A stretch of DNA of 48,588 nt from Candidatus Dojkabacteria bacterium (GCA_012842045.1 DUTP01000001.1:94534-143121), one strand, 5' to 3'. Counted from the stretch's first letter, positions 1 through 15,267 are shown. Program-made: numbers and translations. The notes: a model not told the origin generated them from the sequence alone.

Positions 1-203
1 AACATTTCAGAGAGACCCATTAAATAAATAGCTATATCTGCAAGCTCCTCATTTAAATCTTCTTTCTTTTTTCTATAAGCATCATAAGCTTCTGCTACCT
101 CACCATACAATAAGCAAAACTCTTTATTAACATCAGTTGTATTAAACCCTTTGTTAATTTTATTACACCATATTTCTTTTTGTATCTCCTTAATACTCAC
201 CAT
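1..203 (-). CDS. MazG-like all-alpha NTP pyrophosphohydrolase (3' end runs off the window; not in the ORF track)
   Basis: Hand translation from ATG at 203: MVSIKEIQKEIWCNKINKGFNTTDVNKEFCLLYGEVAEAYDAYRKKKEDLNEELADIAIYLMGLSEM. It has the ExxE...EELAD MazG signature and an AGGAGG RBS upstream. Confidence 0.8.
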   Translation of the reverse strand, partial: MVSIKEIQKEIWCNKINKGFNTTDVNKEFCLLYGEVAEAYDAYRKKKEDLNEELADIAIYLMGLSEM

Positions 204-1752
204 ATTTTTCCTCCTTAAATCTTTGATAGTAATCTATTATTTCTGCTATTTTGGATGTAAAAAATTCTTTCAACTTTATTTTAGATAACATTTTATTATT
301 ATTAATAGTATATACTGGATATTCTTTATCATTTAAATTAATAAAACCTCTACCATTACCTATTTCCTCGTATTTAAAAATATCTTCTTTGTACACATTA
401 TCCATTGTATCATCAGAAACAAAATGCCCTCCATGATCATGTCTGATTTTATTACGTTCTTTTCTATTTTTCAAATTTGAAATTAAATTAACAATAATAG
501 TATTTTCTTTATTTTCTAATTCCTCAAGAACTATATTTAAACTCCTGTTATAAACATCATGACCATATAATTTTTCATATTCTACATCTCTCCCACGCGA
601 AAACTGTATAATGTTATTTTCTCTTTTTAAAATCGATACTGATTTTCTTAAAATAATATCCCATAAGTTAGGATTTATTATGTCGTACCCACAACCATTT
701 TTCGCAATTCTAGAATAATGATTAATGTTTGGGAAATCATCTAAATATTGTTCATATATATCTCTCATAAATATCAAATTATCTTTTATTTGCTTTAAGT
801 CTTCTAAACTATTCTTCGAAGATATATCATCAATCATAAACATTTCCAATAATGGTGCCAAGTCATCTATATCAGTATAAATGTTATAATGTGATTTGAA
901 AAAATCAACAAAAGTAGTCTTTCCTGCACAAGAATTACCAATAACGATAATATTTTTAGGTAATTCATTGGTATTTGGAGTATAGTTGATTTCTGAAATT
1001 TCATCTATTGGTCCATATCTTGTAATTGAATAGCTAGCATTTTTTATTCCTTGAATCACTGCATCATCAAGTATTTTCTTCTCAGAATACTTAGCTAAAA
1101 AGCCACCTATAAATGAATCTCCTGCTCCCGTAGTTGAAATTAGATGCAAATTTTGTGGAACAGTGTAATAAATGTTTTTCCGATGTTGAATAACTACAAC
1201 TGGTTTATCCTGATTTGTAACAATAGTAACAGGTAAGTCAGTTATTCGATCTTTTAATATATGATATTCATCACAATTACAAAAAATAATATCAATTTTA
1301 TCTTTGTATTTTTTTATAACAGAAACGACACTTTCAATGCTATGAATCATCACATCGATTGATAAATGTCTATACCTGATTTTATCATTATGTAAAATAC
1401 CATATATATCGACCCCCTTCCTAAATGAAATATGTAAATAATCAATGTTTATATTTTGATTTATTTCAAATTTTTTACCAACTCGTTTTAGAAAACTACA
1501 AGTTCCTAATTTCTCATCAATTTCAAATGTAGTTATTTCATCACACACATTTTCAAATAATTCAATTTGTTTAACATCTAAAACTTTTTTCAAATTATCA
1601 TTAACGTGACTAATTATACCAATCCTTTTATTAGAAACACTCCGACAAGAAAAAGAACTATATATAGCACTACCTCCATATACTTTTCTTCTACCATTCG
1701 GATTTAATATATAATCGATGGAACTGTTACCAACAAAACATAAATCTATCAT
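190..1752 (-). CDS. PfkB/ribokinase-family kinase fused to a C-terminal P-loop nucleotide-kinase-like domain
   Basis: PfkB motifs GGSAIYSS and STTGAGDSFIGGFL (about aa 1-250). Second domain has Walker A GNSCAGKTT. Confidence 0.82.
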   Translation of the reverse strand: MIDLCFVGNSSIDYILNPNGRRKVYGGSAIYSSFSCRSVSNKRIGIISHVNDNLKKVLDVKQIELFENVCDEITTFEIDEKLGTCSFLKRVGKKFEINQNINIDYLHISFRKGVDIYGILHNDKIRYRHLSIDVMIHSIESVVSVIKKYKDKIDIIFCNCDEYHILKDRITDLPVTIVTNQDKPVVVIQHRKNIYYTVPQNLHLISTTGAGDSFIGGFLAKYSEKKILDDAVIQGIKNASYSITRYGPIDEISEINYTPNTNELPKNIIVIGNSCAGKTTFVDFFKSHYNIYTDIDDLAPLLEMFMIDDISSKNSLEDLKQIKDNLIFMRDIYEQYLDDFPNINHYSRIAKNGCGYDIINPNLWDIILRKSVSILKRENNIIQFSRGRDVEYEKLYGHDVYNRSLNIVLEELENKENTIIVNLISNLKNRKERNKIRHDHGGHFVSDDTMDNVYKEDIFKYEEIGNGRGFINLNDKEYPVYTINNNKMLSKIKLKEFFTSKIAEIIDYYQRFKEEKYGEY

Positions 1753-2246
1753 TTTAAAAACAATTTCTTAGTATTATTTTGAATTTCTTCTTTACCCATT
1801 TTATGACTATCCAATGTTAGAATATCAATGAAAACACTACTGTAATCCATAATTTCCTCGTATCGAGCATTTAACAACTCATAGTATTTGTCTATCATAT
1901 TATAATCCTTTAAATCATTAGCACGTCTAGATAACAATACACCTTTTGGCGATGTTAAATAAACGATGATTGCTTCATGTTTTTTATATTCTTGCAACAA
2001 TTGTGTATACTGCTCTAAAGTTAATTTACAATTATTTCTTAATATAGGACCATATACCATTTCACTTACAAAGGATCTATCAAAAACAATACTACTTGTA
2101 TCTTCATTTAAAACAACCATATATTTACTAAATAAATCCTTGTTTTTTTCATCATAATCAAAATGGTATTTTTTCATACCATTACTAACCAAATAATCTA
2201 CTAATGTTGTTTTACCGACTCCATCTAATCCTTCAATTATTATCAT
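1749..2246 (-). CDS. Thymidylate/dNMP kinase-like P-loop kinase
   Basis: IIIEGLDGVGKTT P-loop and FDRSFVSEMVYGP motif. GGAGG RBS; 4-nt overlap with the next gene. Confidence 0.8.
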   Translation of the reverse strand: MIIIEGLDGVGKTTLVDYLVSNGMKKYHFDYDEKNKDLFSKYMVVLNEDTSSIVFDRSFVSEMVYGPILRNNCKLTLEQYTQLLQEYKKHEAIIVYLTSPKGVLLSRRANDLKDYNMIDKYYELLNARYEEIMDYSSVFIDILTLDSHKMGKEEIQNNTKKLFLK

Positions 2247-2260
2247 CTTGAATCCTCCAA

Positions 2261-3022
2261 CTATTTTTTACATTTAAAGCTTGTATGCACCATTTTTGCT
2301 AAGGGACATTCATCTGGCTTATGTTTGTTACAATAATGTCTCTTGTAATATATCAAAACTAAATGAACCCACCAACAAGCATTATTATAATCTGGTATAT
2401 TTAATTTGTCATATCCGTTCTGTATTATAATATCTTCCATATTGTTATCTTTTACTAATTCTTGTAATTGCTTCCTTAGAATATCATGTCCAAATGCATT
2501 ACTATATTTTTCAAACCCTAAACATGGAAGTTGTATATCTTTCATACCACTATCAACAGGCATTATTCCACAATAATAACCTCTTGTGTACAAAACACAA
2601 CATTGAGCCACTTTATATGATGCACCAACAACATTCTCAGCTATCATTTTTATTAAATCATCATTTGATTTTGCTAATATCTCATCTTTATATTTTTCAA
2701 TAAAACTTATCATTGATTTTAAATATTTATACCTCGCATTAGCAAGTCCTAATCCTTTTATTATCGCAATAAGTTCTTCCTTCTCCATTAATTTGATTTG
2801 TTCATAACTATATTTATTGAGTTTGTCAATTACACTTCTATAACTGTAAATCATATTATAAGATACTCGTGTCGATAAACCTGCTATAAGTAATCTTTTT
2901 CTATAATCTTCCACTTCTAATGGCCACCACATATTATTATCATGGTTTTTAAAAACATCTTCTTTGACATCAGCCATACTTGAACATATAGAGATAATTT
3001 CTTTGAATTCTTTTTTTGTCAT
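2261..3022 (-). CDS. HhH-GPD / endonuclease III-like DNA glycosylase homologue
   Basis: IIKGLGLANAR helix, HhH-like GASYKVA, catalytic-type MPVD, and C-terminal YCNKHKPDECPL resembling a partial Fe-S motif. Confidence 0.68.
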   Translation of the reverse strand: MTKKEFKEIISICSSMADVKEDVFKNHDNNMWWPLEVEDYRKRLLIAGLSTRVSYNMIYSYRSVIDKLNKYSYEQIKLMEKEELIAIIKGLGLANARYKYLKSMISFIEKYKDEILAKSNDDLIKMIAENVVGASYKVAQCCVLYTRGYYCGIMPVDSGMKDIQLPCLGFEKYSNAFGHDILRKQLQELVKDNNMEDIIIQNGYDKLNIPDYNNACWWVHLVLIYYKRHYCNKHKPDECPLAKMVHTSFKCKK

Positions 3023-3023
3023 T

Positions 3024-3674
3024 TTATCGCTTTATTACTTCTTTTTTTATTTTATTAAATAAGCAGGAATTACTCGAAATAATATTGTTTTCAAGTTTCG
3101 ATTCCAACTCATTAATCACCGATATTGTAGGAAAATTAGTACACGAAATTATTATATTTTCATACTCTTTTTTATAATTATCTATGATGAAGTCTTTTAG
3201 CTTATTTATTCCAAAATCAAAATAATCATTTGTCTTAATTAAATTAATATTTATATTTTTACAAACACAAATGTCTCTCTTTTCTAGTTCATTTTTCAAA
3301 TTACCTCCTATTATCTCATCATAAGGTGTTATCAATAAACATTTTTCTATATTTTTTTGCTTAGCTTCCTCTATTATGGCATTAAAAGGATTATTATCAA
3401 TTACAACATTAGAATTAATAATTGCTGATGAAGTACAAAAGAAACTTATATAATCTACACCTAGATATTCTAGATCTTTAATTTTATTTTTACTATCTAC
3501 AACTAAATCATTCAAAAATCTTTTCTTGTCTTTCTTATAACTTATTTTATAATCTAATTTTGACACATAGAACACCACGTCTTGAATACTAAAAAATTTT
3601 TTACTAAATAAATACTGTAATTCATATTCAACAGTAAGATTTGTTTTTGGTATAAGTAAGCCTACTTTTTTCAT
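3024..3674 (-). CDS. Asp/Glu/hydantoin racemase - maleate isomerase superfamily protein
   Basis: N-terminal KVGLLIPKTNLTVEYE, paired catalytic-type cysteines FCTSS and ISCTNF, LITPY and ISSN motifs. Confidence 0.75.
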   Translation of the reverse strand: MKKVGLLIPKTNLTVEYELQYLFSKKFFSIQDVVFYVSKLDYKISYKKDKKRFLNDLVVDSKNKIKDLEYLGVDYISFFCTSSAIINSNVVIDNNPFNAIIEEAKQKNIEKCLLITPYDEIIGGNLKNELEKRDICVCKNININLIKTNDYFDFGINKLKDFIIDNYKKEYENIIISCTNFPTISVINELESKLENNIISSNSCLFNKIKKEVIKR

Positions 3675-5176
3675 AATACTTCTCCTAGAAGAGTACGATC
3701 TCCAATATATCCAATAATTCTAACATTATAGAAATCATCTAACTTTAATTCTGTGTTTTTGATAACAACTCTAACTGGACATGTGGCCATTTGGCGTAAA
3801 ATAGAATCTCCATTTCTAAACATCTCCATTCTCAAATCCTTTATTACTAACCCAACTGGAAAAACTTTTTTTAACATAGGAATAGTAAATTCTTTCCTTA
3901 TCTTACAATTCCAATACTCGAACTCTTCAAGTTTATCTTTTGTATATTTGTCAAATTGCTCACCGTATGGGGATGTTAATTTACGAACAAACACTCTTCT
4001 TACCCAACTTCCGGAATCTAACATTTTTCTAAAATTAGTTAAATTATAGTCTAATGTCTTATTGGATTGCCCATCTAATCCATATATTATATTTATCCCC
4101 GGTAATAATTTAGGCAAACCGTTTTCCCCTCTTTCTTTTCCATATTTATTTATCATATTAATTGATTCATGGATATCATCTAAACTACCGTTTAGATTAC
4201 ACAATTCTCTTATTTTAGGATCGAAGGACTCAACTCCGAATGGTGCAATATTTCCTGCAGTTGTGTATTTAGCAATAATTTCAGTTATCTTAACACCTTC
4301 AAGTGTATTTACATTGTGTGGACTAACATTATCAATATGTAGTGTTTTTATATTAGGGCATTCTTCCCAAATTCTTTGAAACAACTTTTCTATTGCATTT
4401 GGATTACAATTCTTATATGCATAAAAATTGGGTTGTCTACCTAGTCTAAAATACAAAGCACCTTTATCATATAAACTTTTAATTTCTGCAACTATATCTT
4501 CTATCTCTCTAAACTGTAGTGGTAAACCCCTCATACCTTCTATACAAAAAGTACAACCTGGTTTTCTATTACATCCAATAGCTGTCTCTACCTCTATAAC
4601 TAGTGGTCTAGATAGTTGATTTAATATTGATGAAGAACTAATAGCTATTGTTCGTAATCTATCATAATTAGGTGTAAATTTATTATTTTTTTCACCAATA
4701 AAATAATTATATGTATTTCCAAATATGATATCACTAAATAATCCTTGTGGTACAGTCTTTCTAATGTTTTCTCTAGTTAACTCATTACCACCTAATGAGT
4801 AAAATAACAATTTATTACAATTATACTCTTTCATTAGTTCTTCGACTTCTACAAAAGATGGTGGTTCAGCAGAAACATATTCATATTTTACAAAGCAACC
4901 CATTACAATGTATATGTTTTCTGCATTAGCTAGAATATTTCTTACATCATTTTTATTCTTGGTTACATTAAGAATTCTTTTATTATAAGATGCAACATCA
5001 TGTGTTTCTCCAGCATTAAACCTTAAATCATCTATTGTTAAGTAATAATATTTCCTTTTATTATCCTCCAAAGTACCTGCTATATACCTAGAATGAACAC
5101 TTAAAAATGGTGGAACACCTAACCCTGAAGGTTCATCGGTATAGCAGTCAACTATAACATCATAATTCATAAACAC
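3671..5176 (-). CDS. Radical SAM protein resembling the COG1031-like family, with a C-terminal TRAM-like domain
   Basis: N-terminal DCYTDEPSGLGVPP family motif, cluster motif GCNRKPGCTFC, FRLGRQP, GVESFD. ATG at 5170 is an alternative start. Confidence 0.82.
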   Translation of the reverse strand: MFMNYDVIVDCYTDEPSGLGVPPFLSVHSRYIAGTLEDNKRKYYYLTIDDLRFNAGETHDVASYNKRILNVTKNKNDVRNILANAENIYIVMGCFVKYEYVSAEPPSFVEVEELMKEYNCNKLLFYSLGGNELTRENIRKTVPQGLFSDIIFGNTYNYFIGEKNNKFTPNYDRLRTIAISSSSILNQLSRPLVIEVETAIGCNRKPGCTFCIEGMRGLPLQFREIEDIVAEIKSLYDKGALYFRLGRQPNFYAYKNCNPNAIEKLFQRIWEECPNIKTLHIDNVSPHNVNTLEGVKITEIIAKYTTAGNIAPFGVESFDPKIRELCNLNGSLDDIHESINMINKYGKERGENGLPKLLPGINIIYGLDGQSNKTLDYNLTNFRKMLDSGSWVRRVFVRKLTSPYGEQFDKYTKDKLEEFEYWNCKIRKEFTIPMLKKVFPVGLVIKDLRMEMFRNGDSILRQMATCPVRVVIKNTELKLDDFYNVRIIGYIGDRTLLGEVL

Positions 5177-5178
5177 CT

Positions 5179-5670
5179 TTAATCAAATAATGTAATAACA
5201 TGATATGGAACTACTTTATCACCTAATTCCTTTATTGCCAGAAATAAAACATCATGTGTATCATCTATCATTATAGCTTTTTCATATTTTCCATCTATGG
5301 TTTGCTTTATCTTATCAATTTTCAACATTTTCCTATCTTCAAATGTATTTGAAATAACAAATAATTGATTCTCTTTCTTTATAAATGGCATATTTTTTTC
5401 TAACCATTTACTCTTCTCTCCTATTTGTTCAGAATATCTACACGAACTTAAAATAAACATTTCAAAATCAAATTGCTCATTTACTTTTTTAAGGATATTA
5501 ATAGATGTTTTTATTGGTCTTTTATATAAATATGTACCATAAACATTATTCTCAATATTTTCCCCTTCACCAAACCTATAATCTGCGACAACACCATCCA
5601 TATCAATGAAAAGTGCTATTCCCCCAGTACAATTATACCTAATTTTATGTAATTCCTTAATAAAGTACAT
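5179..5670 (-). CDS. HAD-superfamily phosphatase, 5'(3')-nucleotidase-like
   Basis: FIDMDGVVAD motif I, ILSS motif II, MIDD motif IV; GGGAG RBS. Confidence 0.75.
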   Translation of the reverse strand: MYFIKELHKIRYNCTGGIALFIDMDGVVADYRFGEGENIENNVYGTYLYKRPIKTSINILKKVNEQFDFEMFILSSCRYSEQIGEKSKWLEKNMPFIKKENQLFVISNTFEDRKMLKIDKIKQTIDGKYEKAIMIDDTHDVLFLAIKELGDKVVPYHVITLFD

Positions 5671-5702
5671 ACTTCAACTCCCTTGAACAACCTCTTTAGG
5701 CT

Positions 5703-5730
5703 ATTATACCAGACGAAAACAAGTTTTCAA
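5703..5730 (-). promoter_or_regulatory. Sigma70-type promoter of the islet operon with overlapping inverted repeat
   Basis: Minus strand TTGAAA-N16-TATAAT with extended TG. Inverted repeat GAAAAC-AA-GTTTTC at 5715-5728. Confidence 0.55.
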
Positions 5731-5731
5731 T

Positions 5732-5998
5732 TTACTTTTCAAAGCTATTTCTAATAGCAGCCTGTGCAGCAGCAAGTCTTGCAATAGGTACTCTGTATGG
5801 TGAACAACTTACTAAGTCCATTCCAATCATATGACAGAACTCTACTGACTTAGGATCTCCTCCATGCTCTCCACAAATACCAATCTCAATATCCTTACTC
5901 ATACCCTTAGCTTACTTAAAAGCATTCTTCATCAATTCACCAACCCCTTCCTTATCAATTGTTTGGAAAGGACCATCTGTTAATACACCCCTCTTCAT
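5732..5998 (-). pseudogene. ppdK: 3' remnant of pyruvate phosphate dikinase with an internal stop
   Basis: Hand translation: [87 protein letters not shown]. This is the PPDK C-terminus; TAA at 5912-5914. Confidence 0.92.
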
Positions 5999-7963: not shown

Positions 7964-8701
7964 ATGTCAAACAATGACAAAACAACTCCTGCCACTAAAA
8001 GCAAAAGATTAAAAGATTTCTCTTTTATAAAAGGTACTATACCCACGGAGTTAATTAATAAAGATTCATTAACTAACTCCTATATGTTCTACAAAGGTAA
8101 CCTAAATCTTTTGAGAGATAGAGCTAACATCTCCGCTATTGTTGGTGCTAGAGATCCACTCCCTGAATCACAAAAATTAACAAGAGACTTAGTTAAATAC
8201 CTAGTAACTAAAGAACAGAAAACTATAATATCTGGATTTGCAAAAGGCATAGACAGTATTGCTTTAGAAACAGCATTAGAATTCAATGGAAACAGAATTG
8301 GTATTCTATCTATATCTATAGAAGAGTTCATGAAATCTCACAAAAAACTTGTTTTTGATGACTCTCTCCTACTTCTCAGTTTAGTTAATGGAAGTATTCC
8401 TTTGTCACCTTTTGAATACAAAACTAATCCATTAAGAAGAAACAAATATATTTATGCTCTTTCTAGCGAATCTTTTGTTGTTGAGTGTAACAAAATAAAT
8501 CAAGGAGGAACTTGGGCAGGTGCTAAACAATATCTGAGGAAAATATATCTTAATGTTGAAAAAAAATCTAATGTATATATTGCAATAAATGAAAATTTCC
8601 CAGCACATGCAAAATTATTAAAAGAAAAAGGTGCAAAACCGTTCAGATTAAAAGATGGAAAACTTAAAAGAGACTGTGAGCAACAAGAGCTATTTATTTA
8701 A
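7964..8701 (+). CDS. DprA/Smf-like Rossmann-fold protein (ShosA-like)
   Basis: YKGNLNLL, AIVGAR, IISGFAKGID, RRNKYIYALS, GGTWAGA. Confidence 0.82.
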   Translation: MSNNDKTTPATKSKRLKDFSFIKGTIPTELINKDSLTNSYMFYKGNLNLLRDRANISAIVGARDPLPESQKLTRDLVKYLVTKEQKTIISGFAKGIDSIALETALEFNGNRIGILSISIEEFMKSHKKLVFDDSLLLLSLVNGSIPLSPFEYKTNPLRRNKYIYALSSESFVVECNKINQGGTWAGAKQYLRKIYLNVEKKSNVYIAINENFPAHAKLLKEKGAKPFRLKDGKLKRDCEQQELFI

Positions 8702-8724
8702 ATTACGACATTATATGCTTAAAT

Positions 8725-9363
8725 ATGAATGAGTGGAAACCTAAAAGTATTTACATCTCTAGAAATAACAAACACTATGAAGGATATGCCCTATCCTATT
8801 ACTACAAAAAAGAAGGAGAACATGAAAGATTACCTCTTGCAGAAGAAATTGTGAAGATAAAACAGAAAGTGTGGCAATTTTCAAAAAGCGGGAAAATAAT
8901 AGGATACTTAAATAAATTCTTTAGATTAAATCCAAAGCTTTTTGTCGATATTGATCTAATTACATATGTCCCTAGCAACATTTATAGTAATAATAGGATG
9001 GGAAATTTAGCAAAGTATATTGCTGATAAATTGAACAAACCTCTTTACAACTTAATTACTTGTTCTAGTACATCTTCTAATTATCATACACAAAAAGAAT
9101 TTACAAAAGAATATCAAGAGAAATTGAAGAAATTTGATATAAAAGATGAAGCATCTAGAATAAGTAAGAAAAATGTATTATTGATTGATGATATTTGTAC
9201 AACAGGAGCAACTTTGTTTGTATGTGCCTCAAAACTGGATGAATTCAGTCCTGCAAATATCACACTATTCACACTGTGTACTTCTAGAAATCAATATAAT
9301 GGATTTGATAACGAAGAAAAAGAGAACCAAAATGATTCATTTGAAGAAGATTTACCATTTTAA
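8725..9363 (+). CDS. ComF-like phosphoribosyltransferase (ShosT-like)
   Basis: ITYVPS and PRPP-binding loop VLLIDDICTTGATL. Confidence 0.82.
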   Translation: MNEWKPKSIYISRNNKHYEGYALSYYYKKEGEHERLPLAEEIVKIKQKVWQFSKSGKIIGYLNKFFRLNPKLFVDIDLITYVPSNIYSNNRMGNLAKYIADKLNKPLYNLITCSSTSSNYHTQKEFTKEYQEKLKKFDIKDEASRISKKNVLLIDDICTTGATLFVCASKLDEFSPANITLFTLCTSRNQYNGFDNEEKENQNDSFEEDLPF

Positions 9364-9384
9364 TTATCTTACACTCTTCAACTG

Positions 9385-9723
9385 CTAATGAAACTTCTCA
9401 TCCTTAGGTTTATCAAACTTGTTCTTCTCTTTATCGTAAGTCCTTTTCTCAGAATACTCTATCTTCTCCTTCATCACATCTACCAACTTCTCTGTATTAT
9501 GAAAATCTTCAGCTATATTAGCAACCTTACATGCAAAAACAATCACATCTGTCACCTCTGCAAGAACACCATCCCAATCCTTCTCCAATATTGCCTTAGA
9601 CACCTCACCTACCTCTTCAGTAAGTTTAAGCATTGCAATCTTTACAGCCTTCTCCTCATCCTGTGCTATTCCTTTTCTTTTTGTAAAATCTCTCTCCCAT
9701 GTTTGTATATCTTTAATATTCAT
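9385..9723 (-). CDS. MazG-like nucleotide pyrophosphohydrolase
   Basis: KLTEEVGEVSKA...AEVTDVIVF. Confidence 0.8.
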   Translation of the reverse strand: MNIKDIQTWERDFTKRKGIAQDEEKAVKIAMLKLTEEVGEVSKAILEKDWDGVLAEVTDVIVFACKVANIAEDFHNTEKLVDVMKEKIEYSEKRTYDKEKNKFDKPKDEKFH

Positions 9724-12286: not shown

Positions 12287-14704
12287 TTAGCTAACAGTTT
12301 TTTCCTTGTAACTATCAACCGCTTCAGCAAGCATCTGTGAATACAAACCATAACCCACAGAATTAATAGCTCCTGATTGATTTCTTCCTAATATATCCCC
12401 CGCCCCTCTAATCTCCAAATCTCTGTTTGAAAGAAGAAAACCAGACCCTAACTCTTGAGAACTCTTTAATGCTTCCAACCTCAAAGCAGAATCTCCCCTC
12501 AGTGTATCAAAGAAGAAATATGCATTAGCTTGAACCTTGGACCTCCCTATCCTCCCCCTAATCTGATACATTTGTGCAAGACCCAACATTGTAGCATCAT
12601 CAACTATCAAAGTATTTACACTTGGGATATCCAACCCATTCTCAATTATCGTAGTACAAAGCAATATCTTAGCATCCCCCTTTACAAAACTCTCCATATT
12701 CCTAGACAAAGTTTGAACACCCATCTGACCATGAACCACTACCGTTTGCACATGGGGAAACAACTTGACCAACCTATCATATACATTCTGTATTGTCTCT
12801 ACCCTATTATGCAAAAAATACACCTGCCCACCCCTATTCAACTCCTTCTGTATTGCCTCTCTTACACTATCCCAATTAAACTTACCAAAATGATTCAATA
12901 TCTCCTGCCTACCACTAGGAGGTGTTGCTAATACAGAGATATCCCTAATACCAAGTAGAGCCATATTTAAAGTTCTAGGTATGGGAGTAGCTGTAAGGGA
13001 AAGCACATTAGTATTTAACTTCTTCCCTTTTATCTTCTCCTTCTGCTTCACTCCAAACTTCTGTTCCTCATCTACAACAAGAAGACCCAAATCTTTGAAA
13101 TTTACACTATCACTCAAAAGTGCATGAGTTCCAACTACAATATCTACACTACCGTTTTTCAAACCCTCAATTACCTTCTGTTTTTCTTCTTCTGATACCA
13201 TTCTAGAGAGTGCTTGAATATTAAAAGGTGTACCTTCAAATCTTTTTCTTAAGACAGCAAGATGCTGGGATACCAAAATTGTTGTTGGTGCAAGAAGAGC
13301 AACCTGTTTTCCACTATTAACAACTGCAAACATAGCTCTCATAGCAATCTCTGTCTTACCATACCCTACATCTCCAACCAACAACCTATCCATCGGCTTA
13401 CCACTCTGTAAATCATCCACCAATTGTTTAGTTGCTAGAAGTTGGTCATCAGTATCCTTGTATTCAAAATTATTAACAAAAACTTCAAACTCACTTAACT
13501 CTCCTTCTTCTAAAAGTGCTGGATCAATAGTTGAAGTTTCTCTCAATGCATAAAGTTGGAGAAGTTCCTTTGCAATACTCTCAGCTCTCTCTCTTGCCTT
13601 CTTAGAAATCCTCCTCCAAGCCCCGCTATTAAGCCCTGTTAAAACTGGCTTGGCTTTTGCTGCACCAATGTACTTTGTAAGCTTCTCAGAGGCTGTGAGG
13701 GGCACAAACAACCTATCTTTACCTGCATATGATATCTGAATGTAATACCCACCCTCTCTCATCTGTATATCTACATATCTACCAATACCATGATCTTCAT
13801 GTACAACATAGTCACCAGGTATTATCTTCTTCAAAATCTCAACCGAACCAGGATCCATTCCCATATTTTTAGTCCAGAATTCAGAAAGGTCTACCTCACC
13901 CAACACCTCCATATCTGTTAAAACCAATACATTTTGTTTAGAAAAAACAAACCCCCTTTTAATTAGGTTTTTCCAAACACCCATATCACTGTATACCAAG
14001 TCAATTTCACTCTTAAGACTATCCTCAACCTCCAATTTGTATCTATCATAGTTACCAGTTAAATACAGAATTGTGTAACCCCTACTCTTAAAATTCTTAA
14101 CTATTTCTCTAACTGCATGTACAGATGAATACATCTCTAAATTAGGGATTGAATGAATACCTAAATTAACAGCTTCATCTGGTAAAAGACCAATATTCTC
14201 TTTTACTTCAATTCTAATCGAATCTTCTACATCCTCATTACCTAAAATCAAATCTGAAGACTCACTTAATAATACCCTTCTCTTAACAGATTCTATCTTC
14301 TTCCTACTATCACTTGTAACAATATCAATACTCTCTATCTTCTCTCCTAGGAAGCTTACCCTTAGAATATTCTGCATGCTAAAAGCCCAGATGATTAAAA
14401 TATCTCCTAGGATAGCAAATTCTCCTTCATTCCATACTCTATCTACCCTTTCATATCCTAAACTTGATAACTTCTTAATATCTAGTTTTCCACCTTCTTC
14501 AATCAAAAGAGAGTTTTCATCAGAGAGTATGTCTTCTTTGTTTTTACTTCTAGTAAGCCATACAGATTTACCTAAAAGAAGACCTAAGTACTCAGCTACA
14601 AATTCTAGATATTGTTCATCTACACCTGTAACAGCTCTTACCTCTGATATCTTCTCTTTCAAATCTGCAGAATTAGAGAGAAGTTTTTCACTAAAAGTAT
14701 CCAT
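12287..14704 (-). CDS. mfd: Transcription-repair coupling factor, shortened
   Basis: GDYVVHEDHGIG RID domain, GDVGYGKTE, VDEEQKFG, TATPIPRT, QIRGRIGR, RDLEIRGAG; 805 aa. Confidence 0.93.
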   Translation of the reverse strand: MDTFSEKLLSNSADLKEKISEVRAVTGVDEQYLEFVAEYLGLLLGKSVWLTRSKNKEDILSDENSLLIEEGGKLDIKKLSSLGYERVDRVWNEGEFAILGDILIIWAFSMQNILRVSFLGEKIESIDIVTSDSRKKIESVKRRVLLSESSDLILGNEDVEDSIRIEVKENIGLLPDEAVNLGIHSIPNLEMYSSVHAVREIVKNFKSRGYTILYLTGNYDRYKLEVEDSLKSEIDLVYSDMGVWKNLIKRGFVFSKQNVLVLTDMEVLGEVDLSEFWTKNMGMDPGSVEILKKIIPGDYVVHEDHGIGRYVDIQMREGGYYIQISYAGKDRLFVPLTASEKLTKYIGAAKAKPVLTGLNSGAWRRISKKARERAESIAKELLQLYALRETSTIDPALLEEGELSEFEVFVNNFEYKDTDDQLLATKQLVDDLQSGKPMDRLLVGDVGYGKTEIAMRAMFAVVNSGKQVALLAPTTILVSQHLAVLRKRFEGTPFNIQALSRMVSEEEKQKVIEGLKNGSVDIVVGTHALLSDSVNFKDLGLLVVDEEQKFGVKQKEKIKGKKLNTNVLSLTATPIPRTLNMALLGIRDISVLATPPSGRQEILNHFGKFNWDSVREAIQKELNRGGQVYFLHNRVETIQNVYDRLVKLFPHVQTVVVHGQMGVQTLSRNMESFVKGDAKILLCTTIIENGLDIPSVNTLIVDDATMLGLAQMYQIRGRIGRSKVQANAYFFFDTLRGDSALRLEALKSSQELGSGFLLSNRDLEIRGAGDILGRNQSGAINSVGYGLYSQMLAEAVDSYKEKTVS

Positions 14705-14706
14705 AT

Positions 14707-15267
14707 TTAAAGTAGTATCTCTCCTAGAATTGATTTAAGTGCATCTTGAAATACTTCATCTAAGAGAAGTTGTTCATCTTCACTAAAGTTCATCAACACA
14801 AATGCATCCCCTGGAATCTCCTTACCTGTTCTACTCTCAATTCCTAATCTTAATCTTAAAAATTCTTTAGTTTTTAAAATGTTCTCGACATCTATGACTC
14901 CATTATGACCATCTGGAGATTTTTCATATTGTAATTTGTATTTACCTAGAGGCAAATCTAAATCATCATGTACTAGTATTAAATCTTTCTTGACATCAAT
15001 ATCATACTTTTTAACAATTTTTCCTACTGCTTGACCAGAGTTGTTCATAAAAGTTAAGGGTTTTTGAAAGATGGCTACAACCTGAGAACCTTTTTTAAGA
15101 AAAGATAGTTCAGACATGAATGTTTTCTCTTCTTCCCATTCTGTTACTCTGTATCCTTTTTGAAAAAGGAATGTTTCTCTAAGCATATCAAGAAAGAGAA
15201 ACCCTGTATTATGTCTAGTTGTTTGATATTTTTTACCTGGATTTCCTAATCCTACTATTAGTTTCAT
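14707..15267 (-). CDS. pth: Peptidyl-tRNA hydrolase
   Basis: LIVGLGNPG..Y..TRHN.GF, KPLTFMNNSG, VHDDLD, HNG. Confidence 0.97.
   Translation of the reverse strand: MKLIVGLGNPGKKYQTTRHNTGFLFLDMLRETFLFQKGYRVTEWEEEKTFMSELSFLKKGSQVVAIFQKPLTFMNNSGQAVGKIVKKYDIDVKKDLILVHDDLDLPLGKYKLQYEKSPDGHNGVIDVENILKTKEFLRLRLGIESRTGKEIPGDAFVLMNFSEDEQLLLDEVFQDALKSILGEILL

Follow-up and report, generated by a model that had tools for sequence, protein, structure and literature searches.

Modified nucleotides are made in phages by dedicated modules, exemplified by the dCTPase, dCMP hydroxymethylase and deoxynucleoside monophosphate (dNMP) kinase of T4, and by the dUTPase, the NT5C-like YorS and the deoxynucleoside kinase (dNK)-like YorR of modules of the SPO1/SPbeta type. 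Prokaryotic viperins, for their part, follow a logic of radical S-adenosylmethionine (SAM) enzyme plus nucleotide kinase. In the thymidine hypermodification clusters of phages, such as that of M6, 5-HMUDK is accompanied by an aGPT-Pplase related to helix-hairpin-helix (HhH) proteins, a radical SAM isomerase and a pyridoxal phosphate-dependent decarboxylase (PMC8989533). On the side of salvage, Qng1 (DUF2419), an HhH-fold protein with conserved Lys and Asp residues, hydrolyses queuosine-5'-monophosphate (PMC9881137), and a glycosidase and a radical SAM lyase, QueK and QueL, are encoded in one operon for the salvage of preQ1 (PMC11477304). Here we analyse an operon of seven genes at the beginning of a stretch of 48,588 nucleotides from Candidatus Dojkabacteria bacterium (GCA_012842045.1, DUTP01000001.1:94534-143121; the window, in what follows). 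Its gene set, which recurs in several phyla, follows a known logic of nucleotide modification or salvage and is built from three uncharacterised families. A preliminary description of the stretch, made from the sequence alone, had taken the operon for an acquired, nucleotide-centred pathway, and this overall view holds.

With the phage modules the operon shares an all-alpha nucleoside triphosphate (NTP) pyrophosphatase, a 5'-deoxynucleotidase and a small kinase of dNK or thymidylate kinase (TMPK) type, placed around a base-modifying step. It differs from them in that this step would belong to a radical SAM enzyme of MiaB fold together with a Cys/Cys isomerase, rather than to a thymidylate synthase homologue, in the addition of an HhH-fold enzyme and a PfkB kinase, and in being cellular or plasmid-borne; homologues were found neither in IMG/VR nor among GenBank phages. 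The likeness to the M6 cluster stays at the level of superfamilies, at which both comprise a P-loop kinase, a glycosylase-like protein of HhH type, a radical SAM enzyme and a further enzyme that may act on a carboxylate side chain. Comparison with M6 gp51-gp54 by hhalign revealed no specific relationship, and homology was rejected for the HhH and radical SAM parts. The HhH-like protein aligned with the M6 aGPT-Pplase (gp51) at a probability of 0.1%, and had no Pfam aGPT-Pplase match; M6 aGPT-Pplase2 and radical SAM enzyme gave less than 1% with their island counterparts; and both island P-loop kinases resembled gp54 (5-HMUDK) at the generic P-loop-kinase level only (82%). The phage system, moreover, modifies DNA after replication and needs 5-hydroxymethyldeoxyuridine (5-hmdU), for which the cluster offers no thymidylate-synthase-like or hydroxymethylase gene as a source, whereas the gene fusions of the island point to free nucleotides.

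In common with prokaryotic viperins, the island links a radical SAM gene to a nucleotide kinase and may yield a nucleotide analogue, but it has another radical SAM fold and a much larger fixed gene set. A viperin-like system, whose logic the preliminary description had invoked, was rejected, since the fold is that of MiaB, RimO and MtaB, and no PADLOC match to pVip was obtained. Qng1 resembles the HhH-like protein of the island in its fold and its Lys/Asp pair, and acts on a nucleoside 5'-monophosphate, and QueK/QueL resemble the operon in pairing a glycosidase with a radical SAM enzyme. Queuosine salvage of the QueK/QrtT/QueL type was nonetheless discarded: an Rfam search upstream of 16 clusters gave only tRNAs and no riboswitch, be it for preQ1 or otherwise; none of the 361 neighbouring genes (259 families) represented a conserved transporter; and membership in the Qng1/DUF2419 family found no support, the HhH-like protein having no Pfam match beyond a weak one to HhH-GPD, and Qng1 being absent from its top 50 Foldseek matches. 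As the preliminary description had suspected, no named system matching the gene set emerged from PADLOC, Pfam, NCBIfam, PHROGs or the literature searched, and searches there on the gene combination and on COG1031 returned nothing on function.

Recurrence and fusion of the genes

A search of the gene neighbourhood across genomes had been named beforehand as the test on which the proposal of a functional unit could founder; the homologues do stay clustered. In a scan of one genome per species, the radical SAM enzyme had at least 574 relatives, and 88 retrieved loci (designated by L numbers) were searched with the proteins of the window. The six-gene core, composed of the radical SAM enzyme, the isomerase, the HhH protein, the dNK-like kinase, PfkB and an NTP pyrophosphatase, is clustered, with varying gene order, in about 45 loci from Bacilli, Clostridia, Patescibacteria, Alphaproteobacteria, Gastranaerophilales and Chloroflexi, which is far beyond chance. 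The seven-gene set is collinear in about 35 loci (Bacilli, 'Tenericutes', Clostridia and Erysipelotrichaceae), and a reordered core that includes the P-loop kinase is found in a Patescibacteria single-cell genome, in Gastranaerophilales, in gut Alphaproteobacteria, in Chloroflexi and in Kordiimonas. The hosts are largely reduced-genome organisms of gut, rumen or digester.

The cluster is also carried by cultured Streptomyces, among them the strains NBC_01304 and NBC_01456, on linear plasmids and close to the plasmid ends, and a search of plasmids gave homologues only in Streptomyces and in one haloarchaeal case. The order in Streptomyces is radical SAM, Amdase-like, HhH-like, PfkB, a nucleoside 2-deoxyribosyltransferase (PF05014), dNK-like and MazG-like. 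The radical SAM enzyme is 31% identical to that of the window, and the HhH-like protein, in which the Lys/Asp pair is kept, aligns with an hhalign probability of 100%.

Several of the genes are fused to one another. The commonest architecture of the HhH family, present in L043, L048, L049 and in most full-length family representatives, joins the HhH protein to the dNK-like kinase, and further fusions are HhH::PfkB, dNK-like::PfkB and PfkB::P-loop::MazG. In Alphaproteobacteria, the dNK-like kinase is fused to a pyrimidine 5'-nucleotidase domain (TIGR01993, E 3.5e-40), which replaces the phosphatase of the haloacid dehalogenase superfamily (HAD/NT5C). PfkB is a separate gene in L036, L043 and L046. 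The NTP pyrophosphatase is always present, yet non-orthologous: some lineages use MazG, others (Alphaproteobacteria) Ham1. Because synteny is conserved across phyla and the genes are fused in these ways, we regard them as one functional, nucleotide-centred unit, as the preliminary description had held.

The flanking genes are not conserved, as the number of families among the neighbours indicates, and only three of them recur: ppdK, the Ham1-type NTP pyrophosphatase and a 112-aa ASCH-like protein. The latter, of 112-115 aa, stands ahead of Ham1 in alphaproteobacterial loci (L046 5525-5872, L047 6938-7276, L052 5518-5856 and L054 4772-5110). Without a Pfam match, it matches Pyrococcus PH0355/PF0455 (PDB 2z0t and 1s04; E 1e-7), which we take to be ASCH-type (PUA-like) domains. 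In one gut Firmicutes lineage (L004-L007, 6745-9392), an HTH-WYL regulator and a protein of 661 aa, which combines a PfkB domain with a weak SIS-like region, are encoded ahead of the cluster, and MazG is closely followed by a tRNA gene.

Folds and catalytic residues of the encoded enzymes

The catalytic residues are intact in every enzyme of the operon. The radical SAM enzyme was modelled by AlphaFold2 (pLDDT 90.4) with an N-terminal flavodoxin-like domain, a radical SAM core whose CX5CX2C motif comprises C200, C206 and C209, and a C-terminal TRAM-like beta-barrel. This is the three-domain architecture of MiaB and RimO (N-domain, radical SAM core and TRAM), and the best structural matches of the model, over its full length, are indeed MiaB, MtaB and RimO (Foldseek E ~1e-17 to 1e-15; TM 0.55-0.68), followed by MgmA, TsrM and AprD4. 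However, the three-Cys site for the auxiliary [4Fe-4S] cluster, which those enzymes carry in the N-domain, is not conserved in 18 diverse homologues of the island enzyme, where C9 is the sole invariant Cys beyond CX5-6CX2C, and the partners of the island enzyme are nucleotide enzymes. Together with a score of 24.8 against a family cut-off of 251 bits, this led us to reject a methylthiotransferase identity. A DCYTDEPSG block and other residues of the N-domain are invariant, and are predicted to make this domain a separate binding site.

Homologues of the radical SAM enzyme that are 36-39% identical occur in archaea (L057-L088; DPANN, Methanosarcinales and Thermococci), in loci that contain none of the partner genes of the cluster. 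Their neighbours are weakly conserved, and are often genes for CDP-alcohol-phosphatidyltransferase-like or other membrane proteins. No specific NCBIfam model was found for this archaeal family, which may conceivably be that of the archaeosine enzyme RaSEA.

The preliminary description had seen a racemase or isomerase in the third gene, which is right as to the superfamily; the closest relative is nevertheless maleate cis-trans isomerase (PDB 4fq7; E 1.7e-17, full length), and not a racemase. Both this homology and a pair of catalytic Cys residues, the invariant C80 (FCTS) and C178 (SCTN), place the enzyme in the branch of maleate isomerase and arylmalonate decarboxylase. Since both catalytic Cys are kept, thiol addition or two-base proton transfer would be expected, rather than the chemistry of a one-Cys decarboxylase.

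The HhH-like protein falls short of the Pfam HhH-GPD cut-off (E 0.007; 17.1 versus 26.2 bits), but its AlphaFold2 model (pLDDT 86) shows a two-lobe, all-helical HhH fold, and is matched by Foldseek to EndoIII, MagIII, OGG1, MutY and MIG (probability 1.0, TM 0.55-0.7). K137 (GASYKVAQC) and D157 (PVDSGM) do not vary among 13 diverse members of the family and are kept in the Streptomyces orthologue; when aligned with an OGG-type glycosylase, they fall in its GxGxKVAxC...PxD region. As judged from this alignment, they are the Lys/Asp pair of bifunctional glycosylases of OGG1/EndoIII type. The family is small, with 115 cluster representatives in an exhaustive profile search of 1.84 billion proteins, and no gradient leads from it into ordinary DNA glycosylases. 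Because its members are mostly fused to small-molecule kinases, and given the precedent of Qng1, it is more probable that the protein cleaves or makes the glycosidic bond of a free nucleotide than that it removes a mark from DNA. The earlier term 'EndoIII-like' is apt for the fold and for the Lys/Asp pair, whereas the proposed removal of a foreign DNA mark sits poorly with the kinase fusions.

The remaining enzymes are kinases, a phosphatase and a pyrophosphatase. The HAD phosphatase matches the NT5C family (PF06941) with 27.1 bits against a cut-off of 24.8. The small kinase has the motifs EGxDGxGKTT and DRSFxSExxYG, matches phrog_761 'thymidylate kinase' (E 1e-18), and finds its nearest solved structure in YorR of phage SPbeta (2axp, E 7e-13), with the dNK 8puu among further matches. 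PfkB orthologues score best against models of ribokinase, ribose-1-phosphate kinase and nucleoside kinase. In the second P-loop kinase domain, with which PfkB is fused, known kinases match the P-loop region only. The MazG-like protein, complete in the wider contig sequence L001 (see below), matches PF12643 (E 9e-8).

A free-deoxynucleotide pathway and its alternatives

The reading that we favour, although we hold it with somewhat less than even confidence, is that the operon is a horizontally acquired, self-contained pathway for the making of a non-canonical deoxynucleotide. We infer that its substrate is a free nucleotide and not DNA, because a protein of glycosylase fold is habitually fused to small-molecule kinases, and because the HhH-fold Qng1 hydrolyses a nucleoside 5'-monophosphate. 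This substrate is probably 2'-deoxy and of pyrimidine type, to judge from the NT5C and TIGR01993 phosphatases, the TMPK/dNK motifs, the PF05014 2-deoxyribosyltransferase of Streptomyces, and YorR as the nearest solved kinase.

In the order and direction that we propose, MazG, or the Ham1-type enzyme in its stead in Alphaproteobacteria, would convert a deoxynucleoside triphosphate (dNTP) to the dNMP, on which the MiaB-fold radical SAM enzyme would start a C-H-based change through hydrogen abstraction. The two-Cys maleate-isomerase-like enzyme would then complete the change by a Michael-type or acid-base isomerisation. The dNK/TMPK-like, PfkB and extra P-loop kinases may add further phosphates to the product or to its nucleoside, while the NT5C-type phosphatase and the HhH-fold Lys/Asp N-glycosidase would clear competing or surplus nucleotide, or else swap or release the base. 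The presence of an NTP pyrophosphatase with up to three kinases fits a supply of monophosphate that is followed by re-phosphorylation of the product, and from their sequences the enzymes should together be able to interconvert base, nucleoside, mono-, di- and triphosphate, with the radical SAM enzyme and the isomerase at the centre. By analogy, the net logic would be that of the phage modules of dNTPase, base-modifying enzyme, dNMP kinase and nucleotidase.

A more specific form of this pathway, which we consider improbable, is that the radical SAM enzyme and the two-Cys isomerase constitute a new pyrimidine-modifying step that takes the place of thymidylate synthase or of dCMP/dUMP hydroxymethylase, leading for instance to folate-independent dTMP or to a new C5-substituted dUMP. 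If this were true, cells of several phyla would make an undescribed deoxynucleotide that enters DNA or acts as an antimetabolite.

Several findings weigh against a deoxynucleotide-making pathway. The MiaB-like fold with its TRAM-like barrel is usually seen in enzymes whose substrates are RNA or protein rather than mononucleotides; the cluster includes no thymidylate-synthase-like or hydroxymethylase gene; and Ham1 and an XMP-phosphatase-like HAD protein in alphaproteobacterial loci hint at a purine-like substrate. Furthermore, the fusions of kinase and glycosidase, which dominate the HhH family, suit breakdown or salvage at least equally well, as Qng1 exemplifies; the hosts are mostly reduced-genome organisms that depend on salvage; and a sister Dojkabacteria strain (L090) has a solo HhH-like gene, whose product could act alone as a sanitising glycosidase. 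These last points speak at the same time for salvage or de-modification, in which the kinases would trap a modified (deoxy)nucleoside, the HhH N-glycosidase would split it, and the radical SAM enzyme and the isomerase would restore a usable base or nucleotide, with MazG or Ham1 and the nucleotidase excluding the modified form from polymerase pools. We see in salvage a serious but rather doubtful possibility. It has precedents in the HhH fold and the same Lys/Asp residues of Qng1 (PMC9881137) and in the glycosidase and radical SAM lyase of QueK/QueL (PMC11477304). The stable housekeeping context beside ppdK in Bacilli also agrees with it. So does the small, presumably ASCH-like protein that goes with the cluster in Alphaproteobacteria. 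On the other hand, a transporter is never linked to the cluster, the 16 loci have no riboswitch, three kinases and an NTP pyrophosphatase exceed what trapping needs, and the cluster is present on plasmids of prototrophic Streptomyces and is accessory in Dojkabacteria.

That the nearest structures of the radical SAM enzyme, barrel included, are the tRNA and protein modifiers MiaB, MtaB and RimO, and that the HhH protein shares both fold and Lys/Asp pair with bifunctional DNA glycosylases, could also mean that these two proteins work on DNA or on tRNA or rRNA, where they would introduce, edit or repair a modified base, while the nucleotide enzymes supply or police precursors. The set of P-loop kinase, HhH-like protein and radical SAM enzyme, which mirrors that of the phage M6 cluster (PMC8989533), and the archaeal radical SAM homologues, which occur alone as a housekeeping modifier might, point the same way. 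Yet the hhalign comparisons with M6 described above gave no homology beyond generic P-loop similarity of the kinases, it is difficult to see why a DNA enzyme should be fused, as the HhH protein is, to kinases of PfkB and dNK-like type, the neighbour families include no restriction or reader partner, and no 5-hmdU-forming enzyme is part of the cluster, so that action on a polymer seems to us quite unlikely. Defence against phages, with an antiviral nucleotide analogue or a protective DNA mark as the product, had been the role put forward by the preliminary description, and it gains no support from context. The viperin-like logic, the variable low-GC hotspot occupied in Dojkabacteria, with cargo of RhuM and GNAT type in the sister strain, the WYL-domain regulator upstream in one Firmicutes lineage, and the proximity of the Streptomyces copies to the ends of linear plasmids would all suit it, and similar sets of nucleotide-modifying domains have been predicted, without validation, as defence candidates (PMC13092281). 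However, PADLOC-DB 2.0 gave generic P-loop matches for the small kinase only, no family for the radical SAM enzyme and none for any specific component; the matches of 136 neighbour families were only scattered and generic, with no defence enrichment; and there is no evident sensor or effector. Given also the non-viperin fold, the lack of phage homologues and the stable place beside ppdK in several genera of Bacilli, we consider defence unlikely.

If the favoured pathway does make a new deoxynucleotide, it would represent a cellular, anaerobic radical SAM route to nucleotide modification that has spread horizontally among reduced-genome bacteria of gut, rumen and digester and into the candidate phyla radiation (CPR). 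If a modified nucleoside is salvaged instead, the operon would show how organisms unable to make nucleotides handle modified ones in their diet. In either case, it includes three uncharacterised families, namely, a radical SAM enzyme that has the MiaB fold but lacks the auxiliary cluster, a small family of HhH fold and a new P-loop kinase, and the copies on plasmids of cultured Streptomyces make it directly testable.

Acquisition, insertion site and layout of the island

The acquired nature of the operon, already proposed in the preliminary description, is confirmed by its composition, by a remnant from the donor, and by its absence from a sister strain. Its GC content is 26.9% (positions 1-5670), as compared with 36.1% in the remainder of the window. 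On L001, the wider contig sequence that carries the island (NCBI GCA_036836175.1, 752,854 bp), the GC trough begins at the HAD gene and stops exactly past MazG, so that the acquired unit consists of the seven genes and no more. The backbone genes recR and RNase HIII fall in protein clusters named Candidatus Dojkabacteria. Between RNase HIII and the island sits a remnant of the 3' end of ppdK, a gene that is found at full length (876-878 aa) directly upstream of the cluster in metagenome-assembled genomes of gut Bacilli and Erysipelotrichaceae (L010, L021, L024, L025, L028, L029 and L037). The remnant is 63-75% identical to the C-terminus of those full-length proteins, and the cluster proteins of the same gut loci are 53-87% identical to those of the window; on these grounds, the segment came from a donor of the gut Bacilli/Erysipelotrichaceae type, and the end of ppdK was carried along.

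The sister Dojkabacteria sequence (L090, GCA_035271645.1) has 92.7% nucleotide identity through the end of RNase HIII, and has neither the island, which is therefore accessory in Dojkabacteria, nor the ppdK remnant. In the same spot (L090 10001-13300) it carries the solo HhH-like gene, a gene of 214 aa without family match, a reverse-strand GNAT gene and a gene of the RhuM family, all of low GC; the insertion site is a variable hotspot. The solo HhH-like protein (257 aa) is 70% identical to that of the window. Since the two HhH genes are only 74% identical at the nucleotide level, against 92.7% for the backbone, separate acquisitions at one hotspot are suggested. In L008, the whole cluster is bracketed by a direct repeat of 178 nt (9180-9357 and 14594-14771; 93% identical), which is part of an acylphosphatase gene and has the pattern that would be expected from integration by a single crossover.

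The seven genes, which are closely spaced on the minus strand within positions 1-5730, run 5' to 3' from the HAD phosphatase to MazG in the order of Table 1. The earlier account of their place, their overlapping or abutting arrangement, their low GC and their Shine-Dalgarno motifs is accurate: intergenic distances lie between -14 nt (an overlap) and +14 nt, and AGGAG-like motifs precede five of the seven starts. A single promoter, likewise part of that account, is plausible for the whole operon. The strong sigma-70-like candidate just upstream of the first gene, TTGAAA-16-TGgTATAAT with an extended -10 (L001 6023-6050), has 11 of 12 consensus matches and is the best of the region, but promoter-like sites in this AT-rich region are not more numerous than chance would give, as compared with shuffled sequences. 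In public sequencing runs, the island was found in DNA only, from biogas and digester metagenomes.

Table 1. Positions of the operon genes and associated features, in window coordinates unless L001 is named.
Feature	Position	Strand	Description
NT5C-type HAD phosphatase	5179-5670	-	163 aa; DMDGV motif; PF06941
Radical SAM enzyme	3671-5170 (GTG alternative start 5176)	-	499 aa; PF04055, E 4e-11
Amdase/maleate-isomerase-like enzyme, Asp/Glu-racemase superfamily	3024-3674	-	216 aa
HhH-GPD-fold glycosylase-like protein	2261-3022	-	253 aa
dNK/TMPK-like P-loop kinase	1749-2246	-	165 aa
PfkB::P-loop kinase fusion	190-1752	-	520 aa
PfkB (ribokinase-family) domain of the fusion	967..1752	-	GAGD motif
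Second P-loop kinase domain of the fusion	190..966	-	GNSCAGKTT, EFSRGxD, RNxxRxxxGGHxV
MazG-like all-alpha NTP pyrophosphohydrolase	1..203	-	first 67 codons, remainder left of the window; full protein 100 aa, L001 11550-11852
Best sigma-70-like promoter match	5703..5730	-	upstream of the first gene; consensus match
ppdK 3'-end remnant	5732..5992	-	56-aa open reading frame plus out-of-frame upstream piece

Elsewhere in the window, a second low-GC insertion (~29-30%) relative to L090 lies between dnaX and ybaB (7964-9723; L001 1983-3868), and in L090 ybaB directly follows dnaX. It holds genes for a DprA/Smf-like protein (7964-8701, plus strand), a ComF-like phosphoribosyltransferase (8725-9363, plus strand) and a 112-aa MazG-like protein (~9385-9723, minus strand), and could be another small nucleotide-related cassette. 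About 9-10 kb to the left of the window start (L001 20393-21563), a gene of the IF-2B family adjoins a Glycos_transf_3/PYNP_C gene, and a gene of the Dcd/dUTPase family is nearby. We take the former two to encode a ribose-1,5-bisphosphate isomerase and an AMP phosphorylase; the salvage route from nucleosides to RuBisCO, to which this pair of enzymes belongs, is common in CPR bacteria.

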